A stretch of DNA of 64,000 nt from an uncultured Caldilineaceae bacterium (GCA_964560495.1 CAZLMM010000024.1:316-64315), one strand, 5' to 3'. Counted from the stretch's first letter, positions 31,091 through 56,755 are shown. Notes: a model not told the origin generated them from the letters alone. Program-made: numbers and translations.

Positions 31091-31139
31091 ACCATTGGGT
31101 TACTTCCGCCCACGTACACTAGGCAATTTTGGGAGGTGA

Positions 31140-32321: not shown

Positions 32322-32358
32322 ATAGGATGTATTCAAAATCAGTTACAAGTGGTCATTC

Positions 32359-32431
32359 CGTAGGAGCTTGAACGGCGGCGAAGTCCTCATTCTGTAACAG
32401 CGAGGCTTTGCCGCCGCCCTTCAAGCCCGTA
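32359..32431. repeat. interspersed palindromic element, copy C (diverged)
   Basis: gtaggagcttgaacggcggcg ... tgccgccgcccttcaagcccgtac. Same arm sequences with a different loop. Confidence 0.7.
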
Positions 32432-32539
32432 CAGCAAACTAACTTTGAACACACCAATTTGAATAGATGCCCGCGGATCAATAGAGAATCTGCGCAGATC
32501 CGCCCGATCCTGTATCGGTCAAGATGATGGAAAAACGTC

Positions 32540-32560
32540 GGTGCGGTTACGAACCGCACC
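32540..32560 (+). other. 9-bp stem hairpin of the GTGCGRTT-NNN-AAYCGCAC-CTACG family
   Basis: ggtgcggtt acg aaccgcacc followed by tacgaatttc. Confidence 0.7.
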
Positions 32561-32630
32561 TACGAATTTCACGATGTTCTTGACCAGAACAAAATCCGCC
32601 CAATCCGCGTTATCTGCGTTTTTTTAGTTT

Positions 32631-35512: not shown

Positions 35513-35525
35513 GAGTCGTAAACCC

Positions 35526-36689: not shown

Positions 36690-37687
36690 GATGGGATCAG
36701 GTTGTCCACTGTTTGTTCGATGACGCCGAAGAAGCAGCACCACTGTCCCTCGATCACCGATGGTCGCGAGCGCAATCCAAAGACGACACCGTCGCGCGGG
36801 GCGGTCAATTCGGCCAACACATCGCCATAGAGATTGTAAATGACGCCCAGTGGCGTTCCCTGGGCGACAGGAGTCTCGAAGGGCAGGTCGCGATTGCCCA
36901 CAAAGATGCCCGTCGCCGGCGCCAAAAGCGCAATCTGATAGCCCTGCCGCCACGCCGGCGCATAGGCAGGCGTTCCTTCGATCATCTTATAGTGGCGCAT
37001 GACATTGAGGTAGCTGGCGGCCAGGTCCTCGGCCACAACATGGAAATCGCCTGTCAGCGAGCGGCAGTTGCCGCCCAGTTCCACTGTAATGCCGCCCTTG
37101 CCCAGAGACGCTATTATGGAGCTGGGGTTGCCGCCGCCCACTGGGGAACGAAAGACCAGGGACCACTGGGGCCCCATGGCCGCAGCCAATTCCAGGCTGA
37201 CCGGGTTGTCCGACGCAAAGATCATGTGCGCCAGGTAGGAATGTTCGCCGCCCGAATGGACAGCGATTTGCAGGTCGCAGTTCTCTTTCATAGCCAGCCA
37301 GTGAGCATAGGCGATGCGTTCGGTGGGATAGCCTTCGGCCTTGCCGGGATAGATGCGGTTCATATCATAGCTGAAGGTGTCCAGCGGGTCGCCGCGCGTG
37401 CCGGCCGTGAAAGCGTTCACGTTCATGGCGGGCACTGCCACGATTGTTCCGCGTAGGCGTTGCGGGTCGATCTGCTTGAGCGCCAGAAAGATCGAAAAAG
37501 CGCCTTCCGGCTCATCGCCGTGGGTGGCGCCGTTGATCCAGAGCCGCGGCCCTTCTTCCACCCCCCGTGCAACGATAATGGGCATGGCGTAGGGGCGCCC
37601 GGCCATATCAACGCCCGCCTGAATGACGCCCCGTTTCATCTCGCCCGGCATGACCGTCGTCACACCAATTGTCATTGCTTCTGTCAT
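36686..37687 (-). CDS. succinylglutamate desuccinylase/aspartoacylase family deacylase
   Basis: 333-aa ORF with zinc-site-like 'NGATHGDEPEG'. Family assignment is from recall. Confidence 0.75.
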   Translation of the reverse strand: MTEAMTIGVTTVMPGEMKRGVIQAGVDMAGRPYAMPIIVARGVEEGPRLWINGATHGDEPEGAFSIFLALKQIDPQRLRGTIVAVPAMNVNAFTAGTRGDPLDTFSYDMNRIYPGKAEGYPTERIAYAHWLAMKENCDLQIAVHSGGEHSYLAHMIFASDNPVSLELAAAMGPQWSLVFRSPVGGGNPSSIIASLGKGGITVELGGNCRSLTGDFHVVAEDLAASYLNVMRHYKMIEGTPAYAPAWRQGYQIALLAPATGIFVGNRDLPFETPVAQGTPLGVIYNLYGDVLAELTAPRDGVVFGLRSRPSVIEGQWCCFFGVIEQTVDNLIPS

Positions 37688-37696
37688 AGTTGCTCC

Positions 37697-38890
37697 CTAT
37701 CGATGTCGCGCCAGCACGCCAGCCATCCGTTCCAGCGCCAACGCCAGTTGATCCTCTGGCTGCAATACGCTGATGCGCAGCCAATCCACCCACTTTTCGC
37801 CAAAGGCGGTGCCCGGAAAGATGAGCACGTGCCCCTCTTTGAGAAGGAGATAAGCCAGCTCAAAGGCAGGAATGCCGCTGGAAGCAGCGTTGGTGTAGAC
37901 AAAGAATGCACCCTGCGGCTCGCCATAGGTGAAGCCCAGATCGGTCAGTCCGCTCTTCATCAGCGCAATGCGACGCCGGTAGATTTCCCGATACTCAGCC
38001 ACCACGTCCTGCGGACCGGTTGCCGCGGCCAGGGCTGCGTACTGGCTCACAGCCGACAGGGGGCCGGTCGTGGCAGCTTTCACCGCTGTCATTGCCGCAA
38101 TGAAGTCCGCCGGCGCGGCCGCATAGCCAACGCGCCAGCCGGTCATGGCGTAGGTCTTGGAAAAACCGCCCAACGTAACTGTGCGCTCAAACATCCCCGG
38201 CAAACTGGCGAAGCTCAATTGCTCGGCAGGGGGATAGATGTATTTCTCGTAGATTTCATCGCTGATGACGATCAAGTTATGGCGCTGTGCGATCTCGGCA
38301 ATTGCTCGCAGATTGGCCGGACTGACCACCGCCGAGGTGGGGTTGCTGGGCGAGATGAGCAGGATGGCCTTGGTCTTGGGCGTGATGGCCGCCTCCACCT
38401 CTGCGGGCCGCAAGTCGAAGTTGTCTTCCGGGTAGGTGGGCACAAGCGTCATCTTGGCCCCGGCCTGATGGATCGCCTCGTCGTAGCTCGTGTAGCGCGG
38501 GTCAGGCGCCAGGATTTCGTCGCCCGGGTCGAGAAGCGTCTGCATGAGCAGGTAGAGCGCCTCCTGCCCGCCATCGGTGATCAGAACATCGTCGCGTGTC
38601 AGCGGGATGTTGTTCTGGTCGTGCAGGTTGGCCGCCACTGCTTCGCGCAGAGCTGGCAGGCCAGCCGTAGGAACGGGCAGATCAGCCCGTCCATCCAGTA
38701 TGGCCGCGCGAGCTGCAGCAATGACATGTTCTGGCGTGTTGAGGTCTGGGTCGCCGCGGCCCAGAGTAATCGCGTCGGGAATTTGCCCCGCCAGTTCCAT
38801 GAGAGCATAGCGCAGTTTGACGCCGTCAGCGGCGACTGCGCGCAGTTCGTCTGGCGTCACAATCTGACCTGGTGCGACTTTCTGGCTCAT
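37697..38890 (-). CDS. class I/II pyridoxal-phosphate aminotransferase
   Basis: Motifs 'SPSNPT', 'SDEIYEK' and PLP-lysine 'GGFSKTYAMTGWRVGY'. Confidence 0.85.
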   Translation of the reverse strand: MSQKVAPGQIVTPDELRAVAADGVKLRYALMELAGQIPDAITLGRGDPDLNTPEHVIAAARAAILDGRADLPVPTAGLPALREAVAANLHDQNNIPLTRDDVLITDGGQEALYLLMQTLLDPGDEILAPDPRYTSYDEAIHQAGAKMTLVPTYPEDNFDLRPAEVEAAITPKTKAILLISPSNPTSAVVSPANLRAIAEIAQRHNLIVISDEIYEKYIYPPAEQLSFASLPGMFERTVTLGGFSKTYAMTGWRVGYAAAPADFIAAMTAVKAATTGPLSAVSQYAALAAATGPQDVVAEYREIYRRRIALMKSGLTDLGFTYGEPQGAFFVYTNAASSGIPAFELAYLLLKEGHVLIFPGTAFGEKWVDWLRISVLQPEDQLALALERMAGVLARHR

Positions 38891-38893
38891 TCA

Positions 38894-39982
38894 CTAACGT
38901 CCTTTCACCTGGCGCAGCCCAACCTCGAGCGCCTCCAGCGCATCGGCCAGCGAGCCGGAAGGCGCGGCAATGCGGAGCATGCCGGGCTGGCCGAGCAACG
39001 CGCCGTCGCCCACCAGGACGCCGGCAGAGCGGCACGCACCAGCCGCAGCGCTGCTGTCACCCACCTTGGCCGCAACGAAGGCCACCGTGTCCGGTTCCAG
39101 GTAAGCGATCTCAAGGCGGTCGAGGAGCGCAAGGATCGCTTCCATACGCTCGGCGTATTGGGCTTCGATCTCGCCTTCATCCACTTCGACGGCAGCCGCC
39201 AACGCCGCATACTGGCTGGCAGCCGCTGTGCAGATGGTGATGGATTGCTTGAGATCGCGCACCGGCGTAAAGACGCGCTTTGCGCCGGCGACCCAACTGA
39301 CGCGCCACGCCCCCAAGCCCGGCGCCTCGGCAAAGCTGCCGATAGTCAGTGTGCGCTCCGCCATCCCCGGCAGCGATGCAAACCGCACGAAGGGCGCCTC
39401 CGGCCGCACAGGGCCGACGCTCTCGTCTGCGATGACGGCAAGACCCGCGGCGGCAACCCACTCAGCCAGACGCTGCAAAAGCCCTGGCTGATAAACCTGA
39501 CCCGTTAGCGGGTGTGGATTGCTCACGATCAGCAGACCGCCGTGGATCTGCGGCAGTTCGCCCGCCAGATCGAGCACGTGTACGCGCGCGTTGGCGAACT
39601 CCAACCCGGCGCGATAGACCGTGGGCGCCGGCGCCGGCAGATAGACGTCCTGCCCAGCAGCCAGGCCGCGCACGGCTACATAACGCGCCTCGGCCACTCC
39701 GCCGCAGATGGTCGCCAGATTCTCGTCCATCGCCGCCCCAGCCGCAGTCAGGGATGACGCCACCGCACGGCAGAGCGGCGCGATGCCTGGGCGTCGCGTG
39801 TAATGGTCGCACAGGTGGCGTTCGATGGCGTCGATGGTTGACTCGCGCAGCGCGGGCGAGGTGCTGCTGGCAAGAAACTCTTCGCTCAGGTCGATCACAT
39901 CATCGTGCACCGGCGGTGGGACAGGCAGACTACGAGCGCGCTGCGCCGCCATGCCGCCGAGAATGGAAGAACCCATGGTCAT
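38894..39982 (-). CDS. aminotransferase-fold paralogue lacking the PLP-binding lysine (predicted non-catalytic or repurposed)
   Basis: 362-aa ORF collinear with class-I aminotransferases ('SNPHPLTG', 'ADESVG', 'GAWRVSW'). The position of the S-x-S-K lysine reads 'GSFAEAPGLGAWRV', with Glu codon gag at 39326..39328. Confidence 0.7.
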   Translation of the reverse strand: MTMGSSILGGMAAQRARSLPVPPPVHDDVIDLSEEFLASSTSPALRESTIDAIERHLCDHYTRRPGIAPLCRAVASSLTAAGAAMDENLATICGGVAEARYVAVRGLAAGQDVYLPAPAPTVYRAGLEFANARVHVLDLAGELPQIHGGLLIVSNPHPLTGQVYQPGLLQRLAEWVAAAGLAVIADESVGPVRPEAPFVRFASLPGMAERTLTIGSFAEAPGLGAWRVSWVAGAKRVFTPVRDLKQSITICTAAASQYAALAAAVEVDEGEIEAQYAERMEAILALLDRLEIAYLEPDTVAFVAAKVGDSSAAAGACRSAGVLVGDGALLGQPGMLRIAAPSGSLADALEALEVGLRQVKGR

Positions 39983-40437
39983 ACGCCCTGCGGTCGGTCG
40001 CCGCTTTCGCCTTCCTTGTAGACCTGCATGAACTCGATCTCGATACCGCTGACTTCATCCTGCAAGAAGGCCACCCAACCTTCGGGGTGGACGTGGCTGC
40101 CCGTCACCTTGCAGGCGGAGCACTCTTTGAGCGTGGCGCCATTTGCCTGAGCTTCCGTCAGCGCGGCGTCAATATCTTCCACTGCAAAGCAAATGTGGTG
40201 CAGTCCCTCATGGCCGCGCTGGGCGATCCATGAGGCGAAGCGGCCATCTGCATCCATGGATTGCGTCACCTGAAATTCCACGCCGCCCAGGTCGAAGACT
40301 GCGGCGCGATTGCGACTCTTGTTGAAGTCCTTGACCTGGACGCTTTCCGGCGCGCCCAATAGCCGCTTATAGGCGGCCAACGACGCATCCACGTCGCGCA
40401 CAGCAAAAGTCATGTGTTTGATCTGGGTTACTTTCAT
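39979..40437 (-). CDS. VOC/glyoxalase-fold protein (methylmalonyl-CoA epimerase-like)
   Basis: 152-aa ORF with 'HMTFAVRDVD' and 'GLHHICFAVEDID', the paired beta-alpha-beta-beta-beta module signatures. 4-nt overlaps with both neighbouring genes. Confidence 0.7.
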   Translation of the reverse strand: MKVTQIKHMTFAVRDVDASLAAYKRLLGAPESVQVKDFNKSRNRAAVFDLGGVEFQVTQSMDADGRFASWIAQRGHEGLHHICFAVEDIDAALTEAQANGATLKECSACKVTGSHVHPEGWVAFLQDEVSGIEIEFMQVYKEGESGDRPQGV

Positions 40438-41258
40438 GTGACCATCCTTCTGCTCATTTCATCTACGTAAAGCGTCACTTTATGGGGCGCAAACTCGAAA
40501 TCGTACCCTTCCGCAGCGATCGTATCTGCCACTGGGCCGGCGTCGAAGCGCAGACCCGAAAAGCGGCTGGGCGGCTGCAACGCCAGCCAGACGAAGGCCG
40601 ACGCCAACGTGAGCGGATCGGTCCAGCGGGCGCGCTCTGCGTCGCTCAACCCGTTCTCGTCGGCCCGGCGGATGGACGTGGGCTTGATGGGCTTACCCGG
40701 CCCCATGGTGTTGACGGCGATGTTGTGCGCTGCCGCTTCCAGCGCCAGCGCCTTGGTGAAGCCTTCGACGCCATGTTTGGCTGCACAATACGAGACTTCA
40801 TTGACAAAGCCGCGCATGCTGGATCCGCTGGCGATGGCCACGCAATGGCCGCCGCCTTGACGCACCATGTGCGGCCATGCGGCCCACACTCCGTGATAGA
40901 CGCCTGTCAGGTTGACAGCGATCATCTTGCTCCAGAAATCCGGCGTGTGTTGGGCGAAGGGGACGAGCGGCATGATCGCTGCATTGTTGACCACCATGTC
41001 CAGCCGTCCCCATTGGGCTGTGATGGCGGCCGCAGCGTTTTGCATCGCCTGAGCGTCGCTCACGTCGACGACCAGGCTCAGGACTGGGCCGCCGTCGCTG
41101 CGAATTTCGTCCCCGGTCAAAGCCAGCTCGTGCGCGTCGATATCCGTGATGCAGACGCGCGCTCCGGCGCGGGCCAGCCCGCGAGCGATGCCTGCGCCAA
41201 AGCCCCGTCCCGCTCCGGTGACCCACACCACTCGATTTTCCAGCAGGTTCGTCGCCAT
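40434..41258 (-). CDS. SDR family oxidoreductase
   Basis: TGxxxGxG motif 'VTGAGRGFGAGIA', 'NNAA', and catalytic YxxxK in 'YCAAK'. Confidence 0.85.
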   Translation of the reverse strand: MATNLLENRVVWVTGAGRGFGAGIARGLARAGARVCITDIDAHELALTGDEIRSDGGPVLSLVVDVSDAQAMQNAAAAITAQWGRLDMVVNNAAIMPLVPFAQHTPDFWSKMIAVNLTGVYHGVWAAWPHMVRQGGGHCVAIASGSSMRGFVNEVSYCAAKHGVEGFTKALALEAAAHNIAVNTMGPGKPIKPTSIRRADENGLSDAERARWTDPLTLASAFVWLALQPPSRFSGLRFDAGPVADTIAAEGYDFEFAPHKVTLYVDEMSRRMVT

Positions 41259-41275
41259 AGAGAGGGCCGAGAGAG

Positions 41276-41315
41276 ACAGGATGAACAGGACCTAGGGGCA
41301 TCCTGTTCATCCTGT
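41276..41315 (-). other. intercistronic hairpin built from CAGGAT units (15-bp perfect stem)
   Basis: acaggatgaacagga (41276..41290) pairs with tcctgttcatcctgt (41301..41315), with a 10-nt loop. Confidence 0.8.
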
Positions 41316-41324
41316 TAAGGCTTC

Positions 41325-42197
41325 CTAATTCACCTGTAGCAGTTCTTTGATGTTTGCGCCGGCTGTCATCACTGGTTGAATCACCGGCGCCTTGCTCGTC
41401 ATGAGCACGGCGATGCCCGGCCCATAGCCGCTGCGGAAACTGCCGCCTTGACAGACCACGCCGATCGCCATCGCGCCCGCCAGAAAACCGTGGCCATAAC
41501 GACTATCCCAATCAGCCACGGCCACGAGGTCGCCAAAGCGCAGGTCGGCCAAACCGGCCGCGGCGAAGCGCTCTGGGTCGGATGTTTGCAAATTGAGCGC
41601 GCCATTCTCGCTGCCCAAACCGGCCCCTGCCCCCGCCAATACACTCGGCGCGACGCCCCGCACCGGTACAACCAGCTTGCCGTCGCCGCTCACATCCGGG
41701 TTGAGCGCATCCAGCAACGCAGGCGAACAGCTCTTGAACTGGATATCGGGAAACTCAGCGAGCTGTAAACCCACGCCGTGGGCCTGCACCTGCACCTTGT
41801 CGCCCGGCGCCATCTTTTCCAGCGCCGCATCTTCGAAGTGGCAGATGACGTGCTCGGCAAAGCGTCCGCTCTTGCCGATGACAACGCCGATTGCGCCGCT
41901 TGCTGCGCCGCTGACCACCCGCGCTCTATTGCCCAGGCAGGCAAAGACGCTCAAGGCTGCGTTGGCCGGGCCGCTGGTTTTGATGGAGACCCCCGGCTGG
42001 ATCAGCTCCGCCGCCCAACCCAGCGCATGGTCGCCCAGTTTTACATTGTAGACCAGTCCGCCATAGGCCGGCACGACCAGCGGCTCGCCGTCAGCCGACA
42101 CCAGATAGGGACTGGCGGGTAGACCCGGCATGGATGGATTGGCGATCTCACCCAGAACGGAGATTTTTACAAGTTGTGATACGTTTGTTGTCAGCAT
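41325..42197 (-). CDS. uncharacterised protein, DUF4438-like (paralogue 1)
   Basis: 290-aa ORF collinear with the adjacent 286-aa ORF. Shared blocks: 'TN..QLVK', 'VYN..(L/V)G..A.GWA', 'PGVSI', 'GDLVAV.D.D.R.G.GF' and 'GANI'. The DUF4438 name is from memory of that family's length and N-terminus, not from a search. Confidence 0.65.
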   Translation of the reverse strand: MLTTNVSQLVKISVLGEIANPSMPGLPASPYLVSADGEPLVVPAYGGLVYNVKLGDHALGWAAELIQPGVSIKTSGPANAALSVFACLGNRARVVSGAASGAIGVVIGKSGRFAEHVICHFEDAALEKMAPGDKVQVQAHGVGLQLAEFPDIQFKSCSPALLDALNPDVSGDGKLVVPVRGVAPSVLAGAGAGLGSENGALNLQTSDPERFAAAGLADLRFGDLVAVADWDSRYGHGFLAGAMAIGVVCQGGSFRSGYGPGIAVLMTSKAPVIQPVMTAGANIKELLQVN

Positions 42198-42305
42198 GAT
42201 TGGCTCTCGAACATATTCATTTGGGTTTTGAGGTCTTGGGGAGACGGGTTTGGGAATTGCCTATTCCCAAAAACCTCATTGCCTCAAGACACCACTGCCC
42301 GGTGC

Positions 42306-43166
42306 TTACACCATCCCCAACATCCTGGCGATATTGGCCCCTGGGTCAATTACCGGTTCAATCTCGCCGTTGGCGCAGACGAGCATGTCCTGACAACCGG
42401 GGCCATGACCTGTCATGACCGAGTCGCCGTGCATGATCAAGCCGATGGTCACGCCCCCGGGCTTGAAGCCGCGGCCAAAGCGGTGGTCGGTATCCATGAC
42501 AGCCACCAGATCGCCCAACTTCAGGTTGTCGATGCCGTGCTCAGCCAGCGCCGCCCGGTCGCCGGTCATCAAGTCCTGATCGACAAACTCCGGCGTCAAC
42601 TCGGCGCCGCTGCCCATAATGTGGGCTGGGATGGTCGCCACAACCGGGACTTGCAGCCTGCCCGCCGCCGATCTGCCCAATCCCCACGCCTCGATCAGGT
42701 TGGGGCCGGCCTTCTTGACCAACACGCCTGGAAAGTCGAGCAGTTTCATGCCGCGCCCTTCAGTTTTGATCACGATGCGGTCGCCGACGCAGAGCTGTTC
42801 CAGTACATCAGGCGCAAAATCCACCAACAATCGGGCATGTTCTCCGGTGACGACGCCGCGTGCGCCTATGGCAGGCCCGCTGGCGACGAAGGCTTCGTTG
42901 CCAACGCAAGTCAGGTAGTGCATTGCGTGATCCACTGCGTCGTCAGGATGGGCGATAGAGACGCCCGGCTCCACGTGGTCGCCCGCCCAGCCATACGCGG
43001 GAGCGCCGACGCGGGCGTTGTAGACGATCCCTGCCATGCCAATGAGCACCCGTCCGACGCCTTCGGTGTCTGGGCGATAAGGCGAGCGATCCAGCGTCGG
43101 CGCGCTGATGAAACCGGAGACCGCCATTTTCACAAGTTGGTCACGATTCGTCCGCAACATGGGCAT
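42306..43166 (-). CDS. uncharacterised protein, DUF4438-like (paralogue 2)
   Basis: 286-aa ORF, full-length paralogue of 41325..42197. See that entry for the shared blocks. Confidence 0.65.
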   Translation of the reverse strand: MPMLRTNRDQLVKMAVSGFISAPTLDRSPYRPDTEGVGRVLIGMAGIVYNARVGAPAYGWAGDHVEPGVSIAHPDDAVDHAMHYLTCVGNEAFVASGPAIGARGVVTGEHARLLVDFAPDVLEQLCVGDRIVIKTEGRGMKLLDFPGVLVKKAGPNLIEAWGLGRSAAGRLQVPVVATIPAHIMGSGAELTPEFVDQDLMTGDRAALAEHGIDNLKLGDLVAVMDTDHRFGRGFKPGGVTIGLIMHGDSVMTGHGPGCQDMLVCANGEIEPVIDPGANIARMLGMV

Positions 43167-43193
43167 CCTTTTACTTATCGCGTAGTCAAATTT

Positions 43194-44210
43194 TCATATC
43201 ACCCGGTGGGCCAGCGAACCATTCTCTGCAAAGCGCCGGACATTGGCCAGAACATCGCTCATCTGCCGATCCCGTGCGCCGCCCGTGCCGCCGCCAATGT
43301 GGGGCGTCAGAATCACGTTGTCGCACTGCAAAAGTGGATGATCGAAGGGGATCGGCTCGTAGAGAAAGACATCCAGCCCGGCGCCGGCAATCTGACGGCG
43401 TTGCAGCGCGGTCACGAGCGCGTCTTCTTCGATGACGCCGCCGCGGCAAATGTTGACCAGGAAGGCGCTGGGCTTCATCAGCGCCAGCTCGCGCGCTCCG
43501 ATCATCTTCTCGGTCTCTGGCGTCAACGGCGTGGCAAGCAGCACGAAGTCCGACGCCCGCAGGAGATCGTCTTTTTCGGCAAAGACAACGCCTTCCGCTG
43601 TCTCTGCCGTGGAAGGCAGCCTCGTGCGCTTGTTGTAAAGGACCGACATGCCAAAGGCGCGCGCTCGCCGCGCCGTCTCTGCTCCGATCTCGCCGAAGCC
43701 GATGACGCCCAGAGTGCGCCCCACCACTTCGAGCATTTGCGATTGCATGTTCATCCACTGAAACTTGTGCTTGCGCTGTTCAGTGCGGATCGGCTCGACG
43801 CCCAGACTGCGGTACGCGCCAGTCACGGTGGCTACGTGACCGCGTATCAGGTTCTTGCTCAGGGCCAGGATCAAGGTCATGGCCAGCTCGGCCACGGCGA
43901 TGCAGCCGTGGAGCGGCATCGTTGCGACAGCCACGCCGCGGGCGCGCGCAGCGTCAAGATCGACGCCGTCGGGTCGTGCGCCGTAGCGCTGGATCAGCTT
44001 GAGGCGAGGCGAAGCGGCGATCAGTTCAGCATTGATGGCTGTGCTCTGCGTCACGATGGCGTCGGCTTTAGGAAGCAGATGGGCCATTGCTGCGGGCGAG
44101 TCGTCGGCTGGCGCAATCAGACCCAGTGATTGCGCTGGTTGCAGTTTGGTAATCCACTCGAAGTCGGTTGGCGTTTTGGGCTCGGCAAATAGGACGGTGA
44201 AGGTTTCCAT
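43194..44210 (-). CDS. D-isomer-specific 2-hydroxyacid dehydrogenase
   Basis: NAD motif 'GVIGFGEIG', plus 'NICRGGVIEEDAL', 'GAGLDVF' and 'ILTPHIGG'. Confidence 0.85.
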   Translation of the reverse strand: METFTVLFAEPKTPTDFEWITKLQPAQSLGLIAPADDSPAAMAHLLPKADAIVTQSTAINAELIAASPRLKLIQRYGARPDGVDLDAARARGVAVATMPLHGCIAVAELAMTLILALSKNLIRGHVATVTGAYRSLGVEPIRTEQRKHKFQWMNMQSQMLEVVGRTLGVIGFGEIGAETARRARAFGMSVLYNKRTRLPSTAETAEGVVFAEKDDLLRASDFVLLATPLTPETEKMIGARELALMKPSAFLVNICRGGVIEEDALVTALQRRQIAGAGLDVFLYEPIPFDHPLLQCDNVILTPHIGGGTGGARDRQMSDVLANVRRFAENGSLAHRVI

Positions 44211-44215
44211 ATGAC

Positions 44216-44917
44216 CTATACAATCTGGGCAGAGCTTTCCTGCCCGTCTTCTGGCGACCAGTTGGCCAACAGGTGATGAAGCGACTCGGCGATGTGGTCG
44301 CTGAGGATCTGCTTGGCCTGCGTCTTGTCACGCGCCTTGAGCGCCGTAATCAAGGTGGGATGGCTGCCCACGACCTCATCGAGAAATGTGTAAATCTTGT
44401 GGCGGGTGCGCAGACAGCGCCGTAGCCCGACTTCCAGGTTGAGCCACAATTTGAGCGCCAGCTCATGATTCGCCTGTTCGAGCAGATATTCATGAAAACG
44501 AAGGTCGATCTCGACCAAACGCGTAAGATCGCCGCTGCGCGCAGCTTGGCGCATCTCCTCCACGATTTCATCGAGATAGTCGATGTCGGCGTCAGACATG
44601 CGCTCGATGCTGTGGTCGAGAGCCAGGAGCTCGAGCGCCGTGCGCACCGAATATAGCTCCTCCACATACTTGCGGGTCAGCGGCGTGACGATGACGCCTT
44701 TGTAGGGCACGCTCTGGAGCAGTCCCTCTTGTTCCAACTGACCCAGCGCTTCACGGATTGGTCCACGGCTCACCCCAAGTTGTTCGGCGATCTGCGCCTG
44801 ATTGAACTCTGCGCCGGGCGCCAGAGCGCCGTCGATGATCAGCTGGCGGAGCACGCCGGTGACATTTTCCTTGAGCGTGCGCGGCTCAATTCGCTGCAAG
44901 TTCTCCAGATACGTCAC
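44216..44917 (-). CDS. GntR family transcriptional regulator, FadR/FCD subfamily
   Basis: N-terminal wHTH 'QIAEQLGVSRGPIREALGQLEQEGLL' and a helical FCD-like C-terminal domain. First gene of the minus-strand operon. Confidence 0.85.
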   Translation of the reverse strand: MTYLENLQRIEPRTLKENVTGVLRQLIIDGALAPGAEFNQAQIAEQLGVSRGPIREALGQLEQEGLLQSVPYKGVIVTPLTRKYVEELYSVRTALELLALDHSIERMSDADIDYLDEIVEEMRQAARSGDLTRLVEIDLRFHEYLLEQANHELALKLWLNLEVGLRRCLRTRHKIYTFLDEVVGSHPTLITALKARDKTQAKQILSDHIAESLHHLLANWSPEDGQESSAQIV

Positions 44918-44976: not shown

Positions 44977-45005
44977 TTGACAACGGATGCGACTCATGAT
45001 ACACT
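44977..45005 (+). promoter_or_regulatory. sigma-70-like promoter for the island-2 transporter operon
   Basis: TTGACA (44977..44982), a 17-nt spacer, then TACACT (45000..45005) with an extended -10 TG at 44997..44998. Confidence 0.5.
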
Positions 45006-45015
45006 CCAAAATTAG

Positions 45016-45039
45016 ATTTGTCAACTGTCAACAGTTGAC
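45016..45039. promoter_or_regulatory. operator-like palindrome, copy 2 (candidate GntR site)
   Basis: atttgtcaactgtcaacagttg (45016..45037) is identical to 29109..29130. It contains 8-bp inverted arms gtcaactg/cagttgac around tcaa and starts 10 nt after the -10 element. Confidence 0.6.
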
Positions 45040-45184: not shown

Positions 45185-46777
45185 ATGAAGTACAAGATAT
45201 CCTGGATATTGGTCGTCTTGATCGTTGGATTGGTCATTGCGGGCTGCGTTCAGCCCGCGCCAGGCGCAAGCGCGCCGGCGGCGGAGGCCGAGACCAGCGC
45301 AGAGGAAGCCGGGGCCACTGGAGGAGGCGTTTTGACCGTAGCGCGGTCGGCTGACGCCAATCTGTGGGATCCAAAGTTTACGAATGACAATAATTCCCTG
45401 TGGGCGCAGACTCAGATATTCGCCACATTGATGCAGAATTCCCCAGATGGCAAAGAGTTGCTCCCCTGGCTGGCGGAATCCTATGAGTTCAACGATGACG
45501 CCACCGAAGTGACCTTCAAGCTGCACGCGGACGCCAAGTTCTGCGACGGCAGCCCGATCACCGCCGAGGATGTGAAATGGTCGTTGGATCGCGGCAAGGA
45601 AGCAGACTCCGCCGTCTCCTGGCAATTCTTCTCCAACCCAGAAATCGAGGTCATCGACGATCTGACGGTCAAGTTCACCCTGGATCGCCCGAATGTGGCT
45701 TTCCCCCACTATCTGACCCTGTGGGGCATGTCGATCCTTTCCAAGAAATACGCCGAAGAAGTGGGCATCGAAGCCCTTGCCGAGAAGCCGCTGGGCTCTG
45801 GTCCCTTCTGCCTGGATCAATGGGACAAAGGGCAGTTGATCGTGCTCAAACCCAACCCCGGCTATTGGGGGGATGATGGCTCGAAGGTGGATGAGGTGCA
45901 CTTGCGCGTGGTACAAGATGACAATGCCCGCGTTCTCCAGGTGCAGACCGGTGAGGTCGATATCGCCCTGGACATCCCCTATGCACAGGTGGAGGCGCTG
46001 CGTGGGGCGGAGGGCGTCGAGGTGATGGTTGATACGCTTTACGGTACGGCAGCAATCCCGCTCAATCAGCGCACGGTGCCCCAATTTGCCGACAAGAAGA
46101 TTCGCCAGGCTATGGCCCACGTCATCGACCGTCAGGCGCTTGTGGACGCCGTGTTGTTGGGGCAAGGCGAGGTAGCCAAGTCACCCTTCTACGGGCCGGC
46201 GATCCTCTACTGGACAGGTGACTTCGAGATACCTTTCGACCTGGAAAAGGCCAAACAGCTCATGGCCGAATCGAGCGATCCCGATGGCTTCTCCGCCGAG
46301 TTGCTCATTCCCTCCGGCGACACGATGGCGCAGCAGACCGCTGTCATCCTCAAGGATCAGCTGGCGCAGATCGGCATCGACATCACCATCACGCCGGTCG
46401 AGTCTGGCACATGGTGGGAGATGTGGTCTGGCGGCACCTATCAGATGCTCTACAAACTGGGCACCAACGACGTGATTGACCCGGCGGAGAATCTCCCCTT
46501 CGACTTCTGGTCCATCGAGGAGGGCGGCTCGGATGCAGCCTTCACCGGCTTCTATAACGCCCGCATCGTGGAGCTGAGCCAGATGGCCGAGCGCGAGTTC
46601 GACTCGGCCAAGCGCGCCGAGCTCTACTACGAACTGCAGCAGATCGCCATGGACGAGACGCCGCAATTGTGGCTCTTCCATCCCTCCAACCGCTGGGCGA
46701 CGCGCGACAATATCGAAGGTTTCTCGGTTTTCCCCACCGGCTTGCACCGCTTCTGGTTGGCGTCGAAGGCGCAGTGA
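45185..46777 (+). CDS. ABC transporter substrate-binding protein, family 5, lipoprotein
   Basis: ORF 45047..46777 trimmed to ATG 45185 ('MKYKISWILVVLIVGLVIAGC', lipobox-like 'IAGC'). About 530 aa, DppA/OppA-like. Confidence 0.85.
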   Translation: MKYKISWILVVLIVGLVIAGCVQPAPGASAPAAEAETSAEEAGATGGGVLTVARSADANLWDPKFTNDNNSLWAQTQIFATLMQNSPDGKELLPWLAESYEFNDDATEVTFKLHADAKFCDGSPITAEDVKWSLDRGKEADSAVSWQFFSNPEIEVIDDLTVKFTLDRPNVAFPHYLTLWGMSILSKKYAEEVGIEALAEKPLGSGPFCLDQWDKGQLIVLKPNPGYWGDDGSKVDEVHLRVVQDDNARVLQVQTGEVDIALDIPYAQVEALRGAEGVEVMVDTLYGTAAIPLNQRTVPQFADKKIRQAMAHVIDRQALVDAVLLGQGEVAKSPFYGPAILYWTGDFEIPFDLEKAKQLMAESSDPDGFSAELLIPSGDTMAQQTAVILKDQLAQIGIDITITPVESGTWWEMWSGGTYQMLYKLGTNDVIDPAENLPFDFWSIEEGGSDAAFTGFYNARIVELSQMAEREFDSAKRAELYYELQQIAMDETPQLWLFHPSNRWATRDNIEGFSVFPTGLHRFWLASKAQ

Positions 46778-46811
46778 CGACGGAGTAACGGCTGTGTGAG
46801 GCAGTGAGGTA

Positions 46812-46858
46812 GTAAGGGAATGAGGTGATGGGGGTCGCCCATCACCTCATTCCCTTAC
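46812..46858 (+). other. intercistronic stem-loop (21-bp perfect stem) between SBP and permease genes
   Basis: gtaagggaatgaggtgatggg (46812..46832) pairs with cccatcacctcattcccttac (46838..46858), with a 5-nt loop. Confidence 0.8.
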
Positions 46859-46896
46859 CGCGGCGCTATTCCCGTTCGCGACCAAAGAAACGACAC

Positions 46897-47838
46897 GTGG
46901 ACATCCTGATTTTTCTGCGCAAGCGACTGATCCACATGATCCCGGTGCTCTTTGGGATTCTGGTGGTCGTCTTTCTCATGATCCGGCTGATCCCCGGCGA
47001 CCCGGCGCGCATCATGTTGGGCACCCACGCCACGCCAGAGAGCGTGGCTGCGCTGCGCGCCGAGCTGGGATTGGATGCGCCGCTGTGGCAGCAATTTCTG
47101 GTGTTCATGGTCAACGTCTTGCAGGGCGACCTGGGCATATCGCTCGTCTACCGTCGCCCGGTGATCAACGTGATCTTCGAGCGGCTGCCGCCCACCCTGT
47201 TCCTCATTGCCTATGCAGCGATTTTGTCCCTGCTCATCACCATTCCCCTGGCCCTGTGGGCTGCGCTGCGCCAGAACCGAGGGCCGGATCAAGCCGTGCG
47301 GGTCGGTTCCACACTGACCCTTTCCATGCCGAGCTTCTGGCTCGGTCTCAATCTGCTCATTCTCTTTGCCGTGCGTATCCCCCTTTTTCCCGTGGCTGGC
47401 TATGGCGACAGTTTCCTGGATCATCTCTGGCATCTCTTCCTGCCATCAGTGACCATCATGCTGCTTCTGGCGCCCATGTTGATCCGCAGTCTGCGCAGCG
47501 GGCTGATCGACGTGCTGAAAGCTCCCTATGTGGAGTTTGCCCGCGCGAAAGGCATCAGTGAGCGACGAGTGCTCCAGCGCCACGTGCTACGCAACGCCAT
47601 GATCTCGACTGTAACCATCCTGGGACTGAACATCGGCTGGTTGATCGGCGGCACAGTCGTTATCGAGACGGTCTTCACCATTGCCGGCATGGGGTCGCTT
47701 ATCGTCAGCTCCATCTACGCCCGCGACTATCCTGTCATCCAGGGTGTGACATTGGTCTTTGCGCTGCTGGTCATCTCCATCAACCTGGTGACGGACGTCG
47801 TCTACGCTCTACTGGATCCGAGGGTCAGCTATGATTGA
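46897..47838 (+). CDS. peptide-type ABC transporter permease (DppB-like)
   Basis: ORF 46825..47838 with preferred GTG at 46897 ('VDILIFLRKRLIHMIPVLFG' matches the usual DppB N-terminus). Upstream codons are encoded by the intercistronic hairpin. Confidence 0.8.
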   Translation: MDILIFLRKRLIHMIPVLFGILVVVFLMIRLIPGDPARIMLGTHATPESVAALRAELGLDAPLWQQFLVFMVNVLQGDLGISLVYRRPVINVIFERLPPTLFLIAYAAILSLLITIPLALWAALRQNRGPDQAVRVGSTLTLSMPSFWLGLNLLILFAVRIPLFPVAGYGDSFLDHLWHLFLPSVTIMLLLAPMLIRSLRSGLIDVLKAPYVEFARAKGISERRVLQRHVLRNAMISTVTILGLNIGWLIGGTVVIETVFTIAGMGSLIVSSIYARDYPVIQGVTLVFALLVISINLVTDVVYALLDPRVSYD

Positions 47839-48712
47839 CGCGCCTACAGCGAGCGAACGATCCGTGGACAGGCGGGAAGGCTGGTTGGCGCGCTGGGGTG
47901 CTCCGTCTTGGTTGCGACGCACATCCTTGATCTTTGGCGCGGCCGTTCTGCTGACAATCCTGGTCGCCAGTATCTTTGCTGGGCAGATCAGCCCACATGA
48001 CCCCATCGCTCAGAATTTGTCGAACACCCTGCGACCGCCCAGCACCGAACATCCCTTCGGCACCGACAACTTCGGTCGCGATATCTTCAGCCGTGTGCTC
48101 CACGCTGCCAAGCTCGACTTGATGATCGGCGTGCTCTGCGTGCTCTTTCCCATGATCATCGGCGTGCTGCTCGGCTGTCTGGCAGGCTACCTGGGCGGCC
48201 ACACTGACACGGTGATCATGCGCACGGTGGACACCTTCACCGCTTTCCCATTCCTGGTGCTGGTGATCGCCATCATCGCCATCATGGGGCCGGGGCTGTA
48301 CAGCATGTTCGTCGCGCTGACGCTGGCGGGATGGAGCGCCTACACGCGCATCGTGCGTGGGGAAATCCTGGTGGTGAAACGAGCGGAATACATCCAGGCG
48401 GCGCGGGCGTTGGGCTATAGTCGATCGCGCATCATGTTTCGCCATGTGCTGCCCAATGTGGTCTCGCCGGCCGTCATTTTTGCCATGGCCGACATCGTAC
48501 TCGTGATCCTCTCCACCACTGCGTTGAGCTTCCTGGGCCTGGGCGTACAGCCTCCCACGCCTGAGTGGGGCAGCATGATCGCCGAAGGCCGCGTCTACAT
48601 GATGACCGCGTGGTGGCTGGTAACGCTGCCTGGCCTGGCAATCGTGGCCGTAGGTTTGGCGCTCAGCTTTTTTGGCGATGGCCTGGCCGATCTCTTGCGC
48701 ACCGAGGATTAG
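47831..48712 (+). CDS. peptide-type ABC transporter permease (DppC-like)
   Basis: 293-aa multi-TM ORF that overlaps the upstream permease gene by 8 nt. EAA-loop-like 'QAARALGYSRSRIMFRHVLPN'. Confidence 0.85.
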   Translation: MIDAPTASERSVDRREGWLARWGAPSWLRRTSLIFGAAVLLTILVASIFAGQISPHDPIAQNLSNTLRPPSTEHPFGTDNFGRDIFSRVLHAAKLDLMIGVLCVLFPMIIGVLLGCLAGYLGGHTDTVIMRTVDTFTAFPFLVLVIAIIAIMGPGLYSMFVALTLAGWSAYTRIVRGEILVVKRAEYIQAARALGYSRSRIMFRHVLPNVVSPAVIFAMADIVLVILSTTALSFLGLGVQPPTPEWGSMIAEGRVYMMTAWWLVTLPGLAIVAVGLALSFFGDGLADLLRTED

Positions 48713-48715
48713 CCG

Positions 48716-49698
48716 ATGGAGCCAATTCTGGAGGTGCGCGACCTGACTACGCAGATCGCAACCAAACGTGGGACGCTGACCGCGGTGGATGAAGTCAGTT
48801 TTTCGTTGCAGCGCGGCGAAATTCTCGGTATTGTGGGCGAAAGCGGCTGTGGTAAGAGCATGACCTGTCGCTCCATCCTCCAGCTCCTGCCTGCATCTGG
48901 CAGGGTGGTGGGGGGCGAGGCCATCTACGGCGGGCGCGACCTTCTGAAGCTCCCAATCAAGGAGTTCAACCAGTTGCGTGGTCGGGAGATTGCCATGATC
49001 TTCCAGGACCCCATGGCCGTGCTCAACCCAGTGCATCGGGTGGGAGACCAGCTGACCGAGGCCATGTTGGAGCATGGCATCGTGAAATCGAAGGGTGCAG
49101 CCAGGGCGCGCGCCATCGAGCTGCTGCGCAAAGTGGGCATTCCCGCGCCAGAAGAACGGCTGGCCGCATATCCCCATCACTTCAGCGGCGGCATGTGCCA
49201 GCGCCTGGTGATCGCCATTGCCTTGGCGTGCGAGCCGGCCATCATCCTGGCCGACGAACCGACGACTGCCCTGGATGTCACGATCCAGGATCAAATTTTG
49301 AAGCTGCTCATTGGTCTCCAACACGAGTTGGGTCTGAGCCTGCTGTTGGTGACCCATGACATGGGGGTTGTGGCGCAAACATGCCAGCGAGTGGCGGTGA
49401 TGTACGCCGGTAAGATCGTGGAGCTGGCGGACAAGGTTGCGCTCTTTACCGCGCCCCGTCATCCTTACACACGGGGCCTGCTCGACTGCGTGCCCCGCGT
49501 CCAGGAAGATGGCAACGTGCGTCCCTTGACGCCCATCCCAGGCGCGCCGCCTGATCTGGTGCAGCCGCCCAGCGGCTGCCGTTTTCACCCGCGCTGCCCA
49601 TTGGCCAGCGACGAGTGCAAACAGGGCGACTTCCCACTCCGCGAGGTGGCGCCAGGTCATTTGAGCGCGTGCATCAAGCATGAGCAGATGAGAACTGT

Positions 49699-49702
<4 letters not shown>
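48716..49702 (+). CDS. peptide-type ABC transporter ATP-binding protein (DppD/OppD-like)
   Basis: Walker A 'GESGCGKSM', signature 'FSGGMCQR', Walker B '[11 protein letters not shown]', and the C-terminal oligopeptide-type extension 'GCRFHPRCP'. Confidence 0.9.
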
Positions 49703-50808
<1,106 letters not shown>

Positions 50809-50852
50809 CCATTCACACTTTTCCCAACAAGCACTCAACAAGGAAGATCACC

Positions 50853-51527
50853 ATGGCCCACGATCCCTACTACGATCTGATCACTCTCCCCCCCGAACCG
50901 CCTTTCGAGCCACAGCGCACTGCCCTGCTGACCATCGATCTGCAATATCTGGACGCGCATCCCAGCGGCTGGATGGGGCGACTGTGTCGCGACCAGGGCA
51001 AGCCCGACCACCTCAAAGAGCGTTTTGACTTCATCCAGGATATTTTGCCCAACGTGCGTCGCCTGCAAGACGCCTGCCGCGCCCATGGCGTCGAGGTGAT
51101 TCACATTCGTGTGGCGTATCGCACGCGCGATGGGCGCGATGGCCGCCGTGCGCTCAGCGCCGATCTGGCCACCGTCACCCACATGGAGGCGCGCGATGAT
51201 GATTTTCTGGAAGAGGTCGCGCCCATTGGCGATGAGATCGTCATCGACAAGACCAGCGCCGGCACCTTCAACTCAACCTCCATCGACCAGATTCTGCGCA
51301 ACATGAACATCAATCGTCTGTGGGTGACAGGCATTGTCACCGAGGGCTGTGTGGAGATGACCGCCCGCGACGCTGCTGATCGGGGCTTCCTGGTGACGCT
51401 GGTCAGCGACGGCTGCGCCTCATCCACCCACATCGCCCATGAAGATGCGTTGCAGCGCATGGGCGACGGCGGGTTGATCAAAGTGCGCACGGTGGATGAT
51501 CTGATCGGCCAGTTGGCCGCAGCATGA
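50853..51527 (+). CDS. isochorismatase-family cysteine hydrolase
   Basis: 224-aa ORF with D/K/C triad context: 'LLTIDLQ', 'IDKTSAG' and 'VTGIVTEGCVEMTARDA'. Confidence 0.8.
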   Translation: MAHDPYYDLITLPPEPPFEPQRTALLTIDLQYLDAHPSGWMGRLCRDQGKPDHLKERFDFIQDILPNVRRLQDACRAHGVEVIHIRVAYRTRDGRDGRRALSADLATVTHMEARDDDFLEEVAPIGDEIVIDKTSAGTFNSTSIDQILRNMNINRLWVTGIVTEGCVEMTARDAADRGFLVTLVSDGCASSTHIAHEDALQRMGDGGLIKVRTVDDLIGQLAAA

Positions 51528-51531
51528 TGCG

Positions 51532-52731
51532 ATGGAACCAATGACAACGCCAACCACGCCGCCGCTCTCGCGCAAGATTCAGTCTCTGCAAGGGGGCGCC
51601 GAGACATCCTTCACACGCATGTTGCGCCTGGCAAGCCAGACGCCCAATCTGATTTCTCTGGGCCGCGGCGATCCAGACGTGGCGACGCCGCCGCACATCG
51701 TGGAGGCCGCAGTCAAGGCCATGCAAACGCGCCATGTCAACTACACGCCGCCGCCAGGGATGCCGGCGCTGCGCGAAGCCATCGCCGACAAGCTGGCGCG
51801 AGAAAACGGCCTGCGCTATGACCCGATGAGCGAAGTCCTGGTCACCTGCGGCGCGCAGGAGGCCATTTCGGTCATCATGCAGACGCTCCTTGACCCAGGG
51901 GACGAGGTGCTGCTGCCAGACCCCTTCTACACCGCCTACGAGATGGCGATTGGCCTTGCCCATGGCAAGGTGGTGCATGTGCCCACCTACGCAGAACAGG
52001 GCTTCGAGGTGCAGCCCGCGGAGATTGCGGCGCGCATCAACGAACGTACGCGCATGATCGTATTGGTCTCGCCCAATAACCCGACCGGCGGCGTGATCTC
52101 GGCAGCCAGCCTGGAAGAAATCGCCGCGCTCGCCGTTCGCCACAACCTTATCGTTGTCTCGGATGAATTGTATGAAAAGGTGATCTTCGACGGCGCGCAG
52201 GCGCCCAGCATCGCCCGCCTGCCTGGGATGCGTGAGCGCACCATCATCATCAACGGCTTTTCCAAGACCTATTGTATGACCGGTTTTCGCGTGGGCTATC
52301 TGGCCGGGCCGGCAGCGTTGATGGCAGCCCTCTACGAGCCGCACCACATCCTTACCATCTGCGCGCCCACCGCCAGCCAACACGCAGCCCTGGCCGCCTT
52401 GGCCGGCGACCAGGGCTGCGTCGATGAGATCGTCGGCGTCTTCGCCCACCGACGCCGCGCCCTGCTCGACGGCTTGCGCAGCGTCGGCGTTCCCTTTCCC
52501 CATCCGGCAGGCGCGTTCTTTGCCTTTGGCGACATCCGTGCATCCGGCATGACCTCGGCGGATTTTGCGGTGAAGGTGTTGCAGGAGGCCGGCGTGCTGG
52601 TCTTCCCGGGGACGCAGTACGGGGCGTGCGGCGAAGGCTTTCTGCGCATCTCCTATCTCGCGCAGGTTGCGAACATCGAAGTAGCGGTGGAACGGTTGGG
52701 GCGAGTCTATCACAGCGCGCGGGGAGGGTGA
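51532..52731 (+). CDS. class I/II pyridoxal-phosphate aminotransferase
   Basis: Motifs 'SPNNPTGG', 'SDELYEK' and 'NGFSKTYCMTGFRVGY'. Close paralogue of 37697..38890 and 59165..60337. Confidence 0.85.
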   Translation: MEPMTTPTTPPLSRKIQSLQGGAETSFTRMLRLASQTPNLISLGRGDPDVATPPHIVEAAVKAMQTRHVNYTPPPGMPALREAIADKLARENGLRYDPMSEVLVTCGAQEAISVIMQTLLDPGDEVLLPDPFYTAYEMAIGLAHGKVVHVPTYAEQGFEVQPAEIAARINERTRMIVLVSPNNPTGGVISAASLEEIAALAVRHNLIVVSDELYEKVIFDGAQAPSIARLPGMRERTIIINGFSKTYCMTGFRVGYLAGPAALMAALYEPHHILTICAPTASQHAALAALAGDQGCVDEIVGVFAHRRRALLDGLRSVGVPFPHPAGAFFAFGDIRASGMTSADFAVKVLQEAGVLVFPGTQYGACGEGFLRISYLAQVANIEVAVERLGRVYHSARGG

Positions 52732-52738
52732 GACTCAC

Positions 52739-54103: not shown

Positions 54104-54140
54104 TGCCTTGGGGGTGGTGGGGAGCGAATCCCCATTCACC

Positions 54141-54180
54141 ATTTTCCATTGACTATTTTCCATTGATTATTTTCCACTAG
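54141..54180. repeat. about 3 x 14-nt tandem repeat ATTTTCCATTGA(C/T)T, reverse-complement relative of the GTCAATGG family
   Basis: Units at 54141..54154 and 54155..54168, plus a truncated unit at 54169..54180. The reverse complement reads agtcaatggaaaat. Confidence 0.85.
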
Positions 54181-54192
54181 AAAGACACAGCG

Positions 54193-55320: not shown

Positions 55321-55332
55321 GGATAGGAATCT

Positions 55333-56745: not shown

Positions 56746-56755
56746 AACGCGAATT

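Follow-up and report, generated by a model that had tools for sequence, protein, structure and literature searches.

A conserved palindrome in two divergent promoter regions of an uncultured Caldilineaceae bacterium as the very probable operator of a neighbouring GntR/FCD repressor

Introduction

Transcriptional regulators of the GntR family recognise operators of the form NyGT-Nx-ACNy, which in the FadR subfamily contain TKGT/ACMA boxes; additional, weaker half-sites often accompany these operators at a distance of 7-12 nt from their centre (Suvorova et al. 2015, PMC4494728). The S2 file of that study lists the 12-mer ACTGTTGACAGT as a predicted PhnR site of Verminephrobacter, ACTGTCAACAGT and ACTGTTGACAGT as predicted PrpR sites of Bordetella, and ACTGTTGACAAT or ATTGTTGACAAT as predicted PhnR sites of Burkholderia (PMC4494728). 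A different arrangement is that of the E. coli regulator NanR and its (GGTATA)3 array, where a 32-residue N-terminal extension of the protein is needed for the cooperative binding of three dimers (PMC8012715). As to the promoters on which such regulators may act, the divergent transcription starts at bidirectional promoters in E. coli are commonly separated by 18, 10 or 23 bp, and at PacrA/acrR an autorepressor gene and its target share a bidirectional promoter (PMC12825309). Here, we report on a stretch of 64,000 nt (the window) from an uncultured Caldilineaceae bacterium (GCA_964560495.1 CAZLMM010000024.1:316-64315), in which the 22-nt sequence ATTTGTCAACTGTCAACAGTTG is repeated in two divergent intergenic regions, one of which adjoins gntR, a gene for a GntR regulator with an FCD effector domain. 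Judged from its sequence, this repeat very probably serves the neighbouring GntR-family repressor as its binding site.

The repeat and its promoters

Within the window, to which the site counts for the source organism refer, ATTTGTCAACTGTCAACAGTTG is present as two exact copies on the + strand, as had been proposed in a sequence-only reading of this DNA. Copy 1 is located at 29109..29130 in the divergent region between a solute-binding protein (SBP) gene, SBP1, and the M14 peptidase gene (site 1), and copy 2 at 45016..45037 in the gntR/SBP2 divergent region (site 2). There were no further matches in the window with up to 3 mismatches, and the chance expectation, derived from 100 shuffles, is 0. 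The same reading had placed each copy 10 nt after an extended -10 element, which was confirmed for both: they follow TGATATAAC (29090-29098) and TGATACACT (44997-45005), respectively. The symmetric unit common to the two copies, and kept in orthologues, is the 16-bp palindrome CAACTGT-CA-ACAGTTG with the core ACTGTCAACAGT; as a predicted operator it spans 29115..29130 in copy 1 (core at 29117-29128) and 45022..45037 in copy 2 (12-bp core at 45024-45035). Arms of 8 bp, GTCAACTG/CAGTTGAC, had also been described; these are perfect in copy 2, where the right arm extends to 45039 and thus 2 nt past the 22-mer, but copy 1 reads CAGTTGGC. With an extra GT-N2-AC half-site 7 bp distal to the palindrome, the repeat contains three GT-N2-AC cores with a 7-bp period and a dyad symmetry centred on the middle core, which fits one dimer plus an auxiliary half-site. 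The predicted functional core of the 22-mer is a palindrome of 12-16 bp, (CA)ACTGT-YR-ACAGT(TG), that is fused to a TTGACA -35 box.

In the 64 kb, only two sequences come within 1 mismatch of ACTGTNNACAGT, and both are intergenic. Allowing 2 mismatches adds one independent intergenic candidate at 57828, which is no better than chance and was set aside. A recent duplication or gene conversion was also dismissed as the origin of the 22/22 identity, since spacer and flanks are unrelated between the two sites and the same bases recur in orthologues with ~80% protein identity.

A consensus scan of the minus strand detected the promoter TTGACA-17-TATCAT, which matches the consensus at 11/12 positions, at both sites. 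Its -35 hexamer is the reverse complement of the TGTCAA within the repeat, and the ATGATA shared by both sites is the reverse complement of its -10 hexamer. At site 2, this predicted P_gntR has its -35 TTGACA at 45019..45024 (-), in the repeat and with a 3-bp overlap with the 16-bp operator, and its -10 TATCAT at 44996..45001 (-), with a predicted start at ~44989; both hexamers are invariant in the alignment of intergenic regions (A2) described below. At site 1, the corresponding hexamers of the predicted P_sbp1, an 11/12 promoter, are at 29112..29117 (-), which is conserved in the orthologous locus L134, and at 29089..29094 (-), with a predicted start at ~29082. On the plus strand, the predicted P_sbp2 of site 2 (TTGACA-17-TACACT with an extended TG, 10/12) comprises a -35 TTGACA at 44977..44982, which corresponds to an invariant TGTCAA block in A2, and the extended -10 TGaTACACT at 44997..45005, with a predicted start at ~45012; in orthologues this extended -10 reads TGATACGCT or TGATATAAC at equal spacing. 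The predicted P_M14 of site 1 (+ strand) has the extended -10 TGaTATAAC at 29090..29098, a predicted start at ~29105 and a weak -35, read from the sequence as TTGGCG at 29069-74. A third promoter reading at site 2, TTGTCA-18-TATGAT, was rejected since it is not conserved at site 1.

The opposed promoters thus share overlapping -10 hexamers (ATGATAYAMY / TATCAT); at site 2, TATCAT (44996-45001, minus) overlaps with TACACT (45000-45005, plus). With start sites predicted from the usual 7-nt distance between -10 and start, the start pairs 44989(-)/45012(+) and 29082(-)/29105(+) are each 23 bp apart, which, by sequence only, agrees with the definition of bidirectional promoters with a shared -10 (starts 10, 18 or 23 bp apart). 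The palindrome core is then located at ~-47..-36 of the leftward promoter and at ~+13..+24 of the rightward promoter. The identical promoter geometry that had been noted for the two copies is seen at both sites, but that description was incomplete, as each site consists of two interdigitated promoters with a near-consensus leftward -35 inside the repeat. In its opposed and overlapping -10 hexamers, and in that one arm leads to an autorepressor gene and the other to a target operon, the arrangement resembles E. coli PacrA/acrR, and the predicted 23-bp start spacing is one of the common spacings. Differences are that the repressor there is of the TetR family, whereas it would be a GntR/FCD protein here, that the operator here lies outside the shared -10 and over one -35, and that the starts here are predicted.

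The regulator and its described relatives

The regulator gene gntR (44216..44917, - strand) encodes a protein of 233 amino acids with a winged helix-turn-helix (HTH) domain at residues 16-77 (PF00392, E = 1.4e-15) and an FCD effector domain at residues 87-210 (PF07729, E = 4.5e-24); its relatives in the PDB are FCD regulators (7xp0, 4p9f McbR). Its GTG start codon at 44917 agrees with the 99 nt that had been counted between repeat and gene. The recognition helix is GVSRGPIREALGQLEQEGLL, and the DNA-binding domain is 47% identical to that of PhnR, with which it shares the VSRGP(V/I)REA helix. The best NCBIfam match is phnR_burk (TIGR03338), with 114.5 bits, far below the equivalog cut-off of 271.5. 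No phosphonate-utilisation neighbourhood was found in the window, where the neighbours are peptide ATP-binding cassette (ABC) transporters, peptidases, DUF4438 proteins and aminotransferases. The regulator would hence be a relative of PhnR and not a member of that group.

The site ACTGT-YR-ACAGT has the family operator form with x = 2, and its GT and AC are invariant in A2; it is situated in the promoter region of the regulator gene itself, together with which it is conserved. PhnR and PrpR have several features in common with this locus, namely, identical 12-mers, the (V/I)SRGP(V/I)REA...LEQxGLL helix, and sites in the regulator's own divergent promoter region. They differ in the regulated genes, which are those for phosphonate or propionate there and for peptide transporters, peptidases, DUF4438 proteins and aminotransferases here, and in lineage, Betaproteobacteria there and Chloroflexota here. 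Likenesses to E. coli FadR are a dimeric winged HTH protein whose effector domain is all-helical, an operator with dyad symmetry and conserved GT/AC, and the predicted role as an effector-released repressor of catabolic genes, whereas the GT-AC spacing is 2 nt instead of the typical 3 nt, and the C-terminal domain belongs to the FCD type. The motif of the window can be assigned to an already catalogued FadR-subfamily class, as predicted from its sequence. NanR, also of the FadR subfamily, is comparable in its phased array of short cores that overlaps the promoter (PMC8012715), but the array here, with three GT-N2-AC cores at a 7-bp period, is dyad-symmetric about the middle core. The window regulator has no long N-terminal extension of the NanR type, its HTH starting at about residue 16 of 233, and NanR-style stacking of several dimers is therefore unlikely.

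Conservation of the element

To assess site 2 independently of the motif, loci were fetched through GntR homologues alone (L004, L005, L086, L087 and L088/L089; 64-81% protein identity); L089 duplicates L088, and the five GntR-fetched loci correspond to four distinct sequences. All of them carry ACTGTT(A/G)AC(A/G)GT-TGACAAA-N14-TAT(C/T)AT in the gntR direction. In the Caldilineaceae locus L088, where gntR comes third in a hydantoinase operon, the site does not adjoin gntR; it belongs to the promoter of the operon, which lies 4.7 kb upstream in the MR_MLE/HydA gap. The alignment A2 of ten distinct gntR/SBP2 intergenic regions has a mean column identity of 56% and only three invariant blocks: GT..ACTGTT.ACAGTTGACAAA, TATCAT and TGTCAA. 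TATCAT lies 17 nt downstream of the palindrome/-35 block, and TGTCAA, the -35 of the divergent promoter, 13 nt further. Neither TATCAT nor TGTCAA was part of any search pattern, and their conservation is therefore unbiased.

Orthologues of site 1 were found via M14 homologues (L134/L135 with 84%, L136 with 74%, L137 with 72% and L138 with 71% identity). The divergent arrangement of a family-5 SBP gene and M14-M24-M20 is kept in all of L134-L138, which stem from four other genomes, and the palindrome is present in the SBP/M14 gap of every one of them. With ~0.01 12-mers expected per 400-nt gap at up to 1 mismatch from the 10 specified positions, chance cannot explain this recurrence. In L134, both promoters are retained, the rightward one as TTGACA-17-TATAAC at the equivalent place, and the central dinucleotide is flipped, as the site reads ACTGTTGACAGT versus ACTGTCAACAGT in the window; such an exchange of TG for CA is what dyad symmetry predicts. 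In L136-L138, the site consists of ACTGTTAACAATTGACAG or of a four-heptad series and starts 11-20 nt past the TATAAT of a rightward promoter, T(A/G)GACA-17-TATAAT (11/12), that is immediately upstream of the palindrome, which supports the proposal of an operator just downstream of a -10 element. The SBP1/M14 island neighbours the gntR operon in several genomes (L134, L137), and in genome JACKBD01 both sites (L088, L138) share AACTGTTAAC..TTGACA. Phylogenetic footprinting, which had been suggested as a check, thus finds the palindrome kept at both orthologous positions across Chloroflexota, with drifting flanks.

A link between recognition helix and motif also emerges from distant paralogues. 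A metagenome scan that used no other query than the peptides G[VI]SRGP[IV]RE and [GA][QRI]LEQEGL[ILV] retrieved 2 orthologues and 78 distant GntR/FCD paralogues with 29-39% identity (L008-L085). The scan was too generic for footprinting, and the paralogues then served as a test set relating helix to motif, with 71 loci that extend 150 nt or more upstream of the gene. An exact TGTNNACA was detected within -300..+10 of the gene start at 52 of these 71 loci (73%), against 0.063 expected per region from the remainder of the same loci. CA and TG are equally frequent at the centre of the paralogue sites (16 each), and the motif is therefore not an artefact of -35 boxes. The flanks are complementary at position +/-2 in 33/50 sites (p = 1e-9), and the symmetrised consensus, RAYTGT-YR-ACARTY, is perfectly matched by CAACTGT-CA-ACAGTTG of the window. 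The assignment of the operator to the adjacent GntR protein is supported by these findings: genes for regulators with its recognition helix are almost always preceded by the core, the palindrome follows the gntR operon promoter in L088, and the 12-mer coincides with predicted sites of the FadR subfamily.

A scan of a genome collection with the 19-mer ACTGTTRACRGTTGACAAA yielded 44 loci, of which ~15 are from Chloroflexota, with one exact copy per Chloroflexota genome; no genome or contig in the collection had two matches. The Chloroflexota matches comprise eight gntR/SBP2 gaps, four MR_MLE/HydA gaps of the hydantoinase-type operon, a site between divergent hydantoinase genes (L094), a site upstream of a 67%-identical SBP1 orthologue (L124) and, as the fifteenth, the promoter of a 32%-identical GntR/FCD paralogue (L114). 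Outside this phylum, the 19-mer was found upstream of a GntR/FCD gene in Aeromicrobium (L116) and of a family-5 SBP gene in Kiloniellaceae (L102). Two further groups were discarded as unrelated, namely, ~17 cyanobacterial matches in (TTGACTG)n heptamer arrays and five matches in Clostridia that represent duplicated -35 boxes. In Microcoleus and Calothrix, the 19-mer is embedded in long (TTGACTG/TTGACAG)n heptamer arrays (L091, L096, L097, L099 and others). In Candidatus Fimenecus (L108, L113, L125, L132), it belongs to a conserved ACTGTTGACAGTTGACAAA-N8-TATAAT promoter ~50 nt ahead of a gene whose product starts with MSQVKVKE, and a near-identical copy exists in an uncultured member of the Clostridia (L118).

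A proposed repression switch and its alternatives

It is likely, as judged from these sequences, that an autoregulated GntR/FCD dimer represses both arms of two bidirectional promoters through the 22-mer composite element. Each intergenic region would act as a bidirectional promoter composed of one sigma-70-type promoter per strand. A dimer of the adjacent GntR protein of the FadR subfamily would read the palindrome, and the distal GT-N2-AC core, which is invariant in A2, may serve as an auxiliary half-site. The bound dimer would occlude the leftward -35 (of the gntR operon and the SBP1 operon) and would at the same time obstruct the region transcribed first from the rightward promoter (of the SBP2-ABC operon and the M14 peptidase unit); since the operator overlaps the leftward -35 and sits at ~+13..+24 of the rightward promoter, one dimer should block RNA polymerase in both directions. 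A small-molecule effector, probably a carboxylate or an amino acid derivative as is usual for FCD domains, would release the repressor and induce four units for oligopeptide uptake and the breakdown of peptides or modified amino acids, with gntR itself among the induced genes, which would amount to negative autoregulation. The extent of at least three to four transcription units that had been proposed for the regulon is supported, with about four units predicted and the palindrome present in both divergent regions. The repression that had been postulated is in line with an operator downstream of the rightward -10 and on the leftward -35; we infer repression rather than activation from the position and from the near-consensus promoters. 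Likewise, we infer binding by this GntR protein, the positions of the start sites, the effector and the operon extents, whereas the sequence of the repeat, its conservation, its agreement with a catalogued class of motifs and the association of helix and motif are directly observed.

Several points weigh against this proposal. The Chloroflexota loci of the 19-mer scan were retrieved with the motif itself and are thus motif-biased, although their -10 and distal -35 blocks are not. The leftward TTGACA/TATCAT pair is not conserved in L136-L138, so that not all orthologues of site 1 show the dual-promoter geometry. Moreover, the operator centre at ~-41.5 of the predicted leftward starts is also the classic position of a class II activator. 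FadR is able to activate from about -40, and it activates fabA from a class II-type site. The GntR protein could correspondingly be a dual regulator that activates the leftward promoters and represses only the rightward ones, and it has been shown for bidirectional promoters that boosting one direction lowers the other (PMC12825309). We regard this as unlikely, given that the 16-bp palindrome overlaps the TTG of the leftward -35, that the leftward promoters, being 11/12 to consensus with a 17-bp spacing, need no activator, and that the sites of L136-L138 have no adjoining leftward promoter, yet are found just past the rightward -10. In addition, FadR-subfamily regulators of catabolic operons mostly act as repressors that an effector releases. 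A paralogue encoded elsewhere in the genome could in principle read site 1, since the core motif is common to many paralogues; site 1 would then be under a different FCD regulator of the same core specificity, and the adjacent GntR protein would control site 2 alone. Such a division is favoured by the occurrence of the TGT-YR-ACA core with most regulators that have this recognition helix. It is nevertheless improbable, since the 22-nt identity of the two sites extends to flanks that differ from one paralogue site to another, and no other regulator was found in the 64 kb among the chosen open reading frames (ORFs) scanned with Pfam; the vicinity of the SBP1/M14 island and the gntR operon in L134 and L137 and the sequence shared by the JACKBD01 sites also argue against it.

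That the repeat is promoter sequence only and involves no dedicated transcription factor, being made up of the -35 and the upstream or extended elements of two strong promoters, might be suggested by the TTGACA and TATCAT/extended -10 hexamers, which cover part of the conserved bases, and by the Fimenecus 19-mer of Clostridia, which is a TTGACA duplication ahead of TATAAT. This is very unlikely in view of the bases distal to the -35 (GTnnACTGTT.ACAG), which are invariant and dyad-symmetric, and of the persistence of the palindrome in L136-L138 without an abutting -35; nor would it account for a centre that flips between orthologues, with CA and TG equally frequent and flanks palindromic in the paralogues. 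Alternatively, the palindrome might act as RNA, as a 5'-proximal stem-loop of the SBP2 and M14 transcripts that stabilises or attenuates the mRNA. The predicted 5' ends indeed fold into a hairpin of 8-15 bp, with -12.5 and -13.3 kcal/mol and z = -2.1 and -4.4, and this potential is kept in L136-L138 with a shifted centre. Yet it is specific bases (RAYTGT/ACARTY) that are conserved, with no compensatory substitutions across the orthologues or the 50 paralogue sites, and the leftward promoters and the L088 operon have the element upstream of their -35, from where it is not transcribed. The stem is not followed by a T-tract, and an Rfam scan of the window gave no match to it. Given the base-specific conservation and the element being untranscribed in the leftward units, the hairpin of the rightward mRNA is probably a by-product, and a function as RNA is highly improbable. 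An accidental presence in two intergenic regions of a short dispersed or tandem repeat, such as a heptamer array or an element similar to repetitive extragenic palindromes (REP) or miniature inverted-repeat transposable elements (MITE), can hardly be credited. The 7-nt phased units GTCAACT GTCAACA GTTGAC are reminiscent of such an array, and ~17 cyanobacterial matches to the 19-mer are true (TTGACTG)n tandem arrays. The window, on the other hand, has just two copies in 64 kb, both of them promoter-located, and the Chloroflexota genomes one per match, at orthologous promoter positions and with a fixed spacing to the -10; long arrays, terminal repeats and copies in coding or 3' regions are absent from the window.

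Genes around the two sites

The gene map is based on Pfam scans of the ORFs of the window that were picked as likely genes; homologues come from Chloroflexota metagenome-assembled genomes of Caldilineaceae, Caldilinea and Ardenticatenaceae. The claim that gntR is the sole regulator gene holds insofar as it encodes the only regulator detected by Pfam among the chosen ORFs of the 64 kb, in which short ORFs were not scanned. The leftward gntR operon (34130..44917, - strand) encodes the GntR protein, a D-2-hydroxyacid dehydrogenase, two DUF4438 proteins, an SDR and a glyoxalase/VOC protein, followed by two aminotransferases, an AstE/AspA-like deacylase, an M20 peptidase and a cyclic amidohydrolase; the gene order is the same in L002-L005, L086 and L087. 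In the opposite direction, the SBP2 unit (45185..57703, + strand; 3' limit uncertain) encodes a family-5 binding protein, 2 permeases, 2 ATPases, an isochorismatase-like protein and an aminotransferase and, further downstream, M20 and M24 peptidases, a 470-aa ORF and a 2-hydroxyacid dehydrogenase. The order SBP-ABC-isochorismatase is kept in L086, L100, L104, L121, L122 and L127. The 470-aa ORF (55333-56745, +) had no match in Pfam or NCBIfam.

At site 1, the leftward SBP1 unit (23908..28872, - strand) encodes a family-5 binding lipoprotein, whose true start is the ATG at 28872, 2 permeases and an Ldh_2 dehydrogenase; it was also found in L134 and L137. The rightward unit (29164..34034, + strand) encodes, according to Pfam, an M14 carboxypeptidase and M24 and M20 peptidases. 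Co-transcription of the three genes is uncertain because of gaps of 233 nt (30907-31139) and 309 nt (32322-32630) between them. The genes are adjacent in L134-L138, where M14 and M24 abut or overlap, and internal promoters or terminators may have been acquired in the gaps of the window.

Further observations concern the same region. The DUF4438 pair (41325-43166) is always located beside SDR, glyoxalase/VOC, aminotransferase and 2-hydroxyacid dehydrogenase genes in putatively GntR-controlled Chloroflexota operons, a context seen in L002-L005, L086-L089, L115 and L119, and in the Caldilineaceae locus L088 this gene set is joined to hydantoinase A/B and MR_MLE genes. The peptide-catabolism region is flanked by genes for a bacterial alpha-2-macroglobulin of 2046 aa (6011-12151, -) and for the tail of a non-ribosomal peptide synthetase (AMP-binding_C, PP-binding, thioesterase; 62435-63934, -). 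The Rfam scan of the window detected no riboswitch in the long 5' untranslated regions of the SBP genes. A 30-nt hairpin element without Rfam match occurs twice, as GTGCGGTTACGAACCGCACCTACGAATTTC and GTGCGATTGGGAATCGCACCTACGGTTTTC at 32541-32570 and 57729-57758, with a compensatory change of G:C to A:T in the stem; both copies are intergenic and immediately precede hydrolase genes (M20 at 32631, amidohydrolase at 57849). Finally, TCAATGG(N) heptamer arrays were observed in three intergenic gaps (1151-1180, 22454-22476 and 54139-54168; 9 matches versus 1.7 expected), which could be the site of another factor or a small dispersed repeat.

Implications

The regulatory principle proposed here is a textbook one. 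As a tentative and rather speculative possibility, the operator may be the hallmark of a regulon that is conserved in Chloroflexota and serves a hitherto undescribed catabolic route, and in which one FCD sensor, acting from a single site, shuts both arms of each of two bidirectional promoters. This regulon would comprise the DUF4438 pair, SDR, VOC/glyoxalase, two aminotransferases, an AstE/AspA-like deacylase, M14/M20/M24 peptidases, a cyclic amidohydrolase or hydantoinase, a D-2-hydroxyacid dehydrogenase and two peptide ABC importers, and the route might process peptides that are derived from peptidoglycan or otherwise modified (D-amino acids, cyclic amides). Several dimers might in that case stack on the 7-bp-phased cores without an extension of the NanR type.

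For uncultured Caldilineaceae-like Chloroflexota, the proposed repression switch offers a testable sequence-level regulon, in which one sensor and two bidirectional promoters would govern ~35 genes for peptide uptake and breakdown, and in which DUF4438 proteins and the unannotated 470-aa ORF would be tied to a defined co-regulated pathway. Although its mechanism is unsurprising, it may anchor a regulon of unexplored catabolic genes for peptides and modified amino acids in Chloroflexota. Beyond this phylum, the rule that links VSRGPxREA to RAYTGT-YR-ACARTY may serve as a practical operator prediction for many unstudied metagenomic GntR/FCD regulators.

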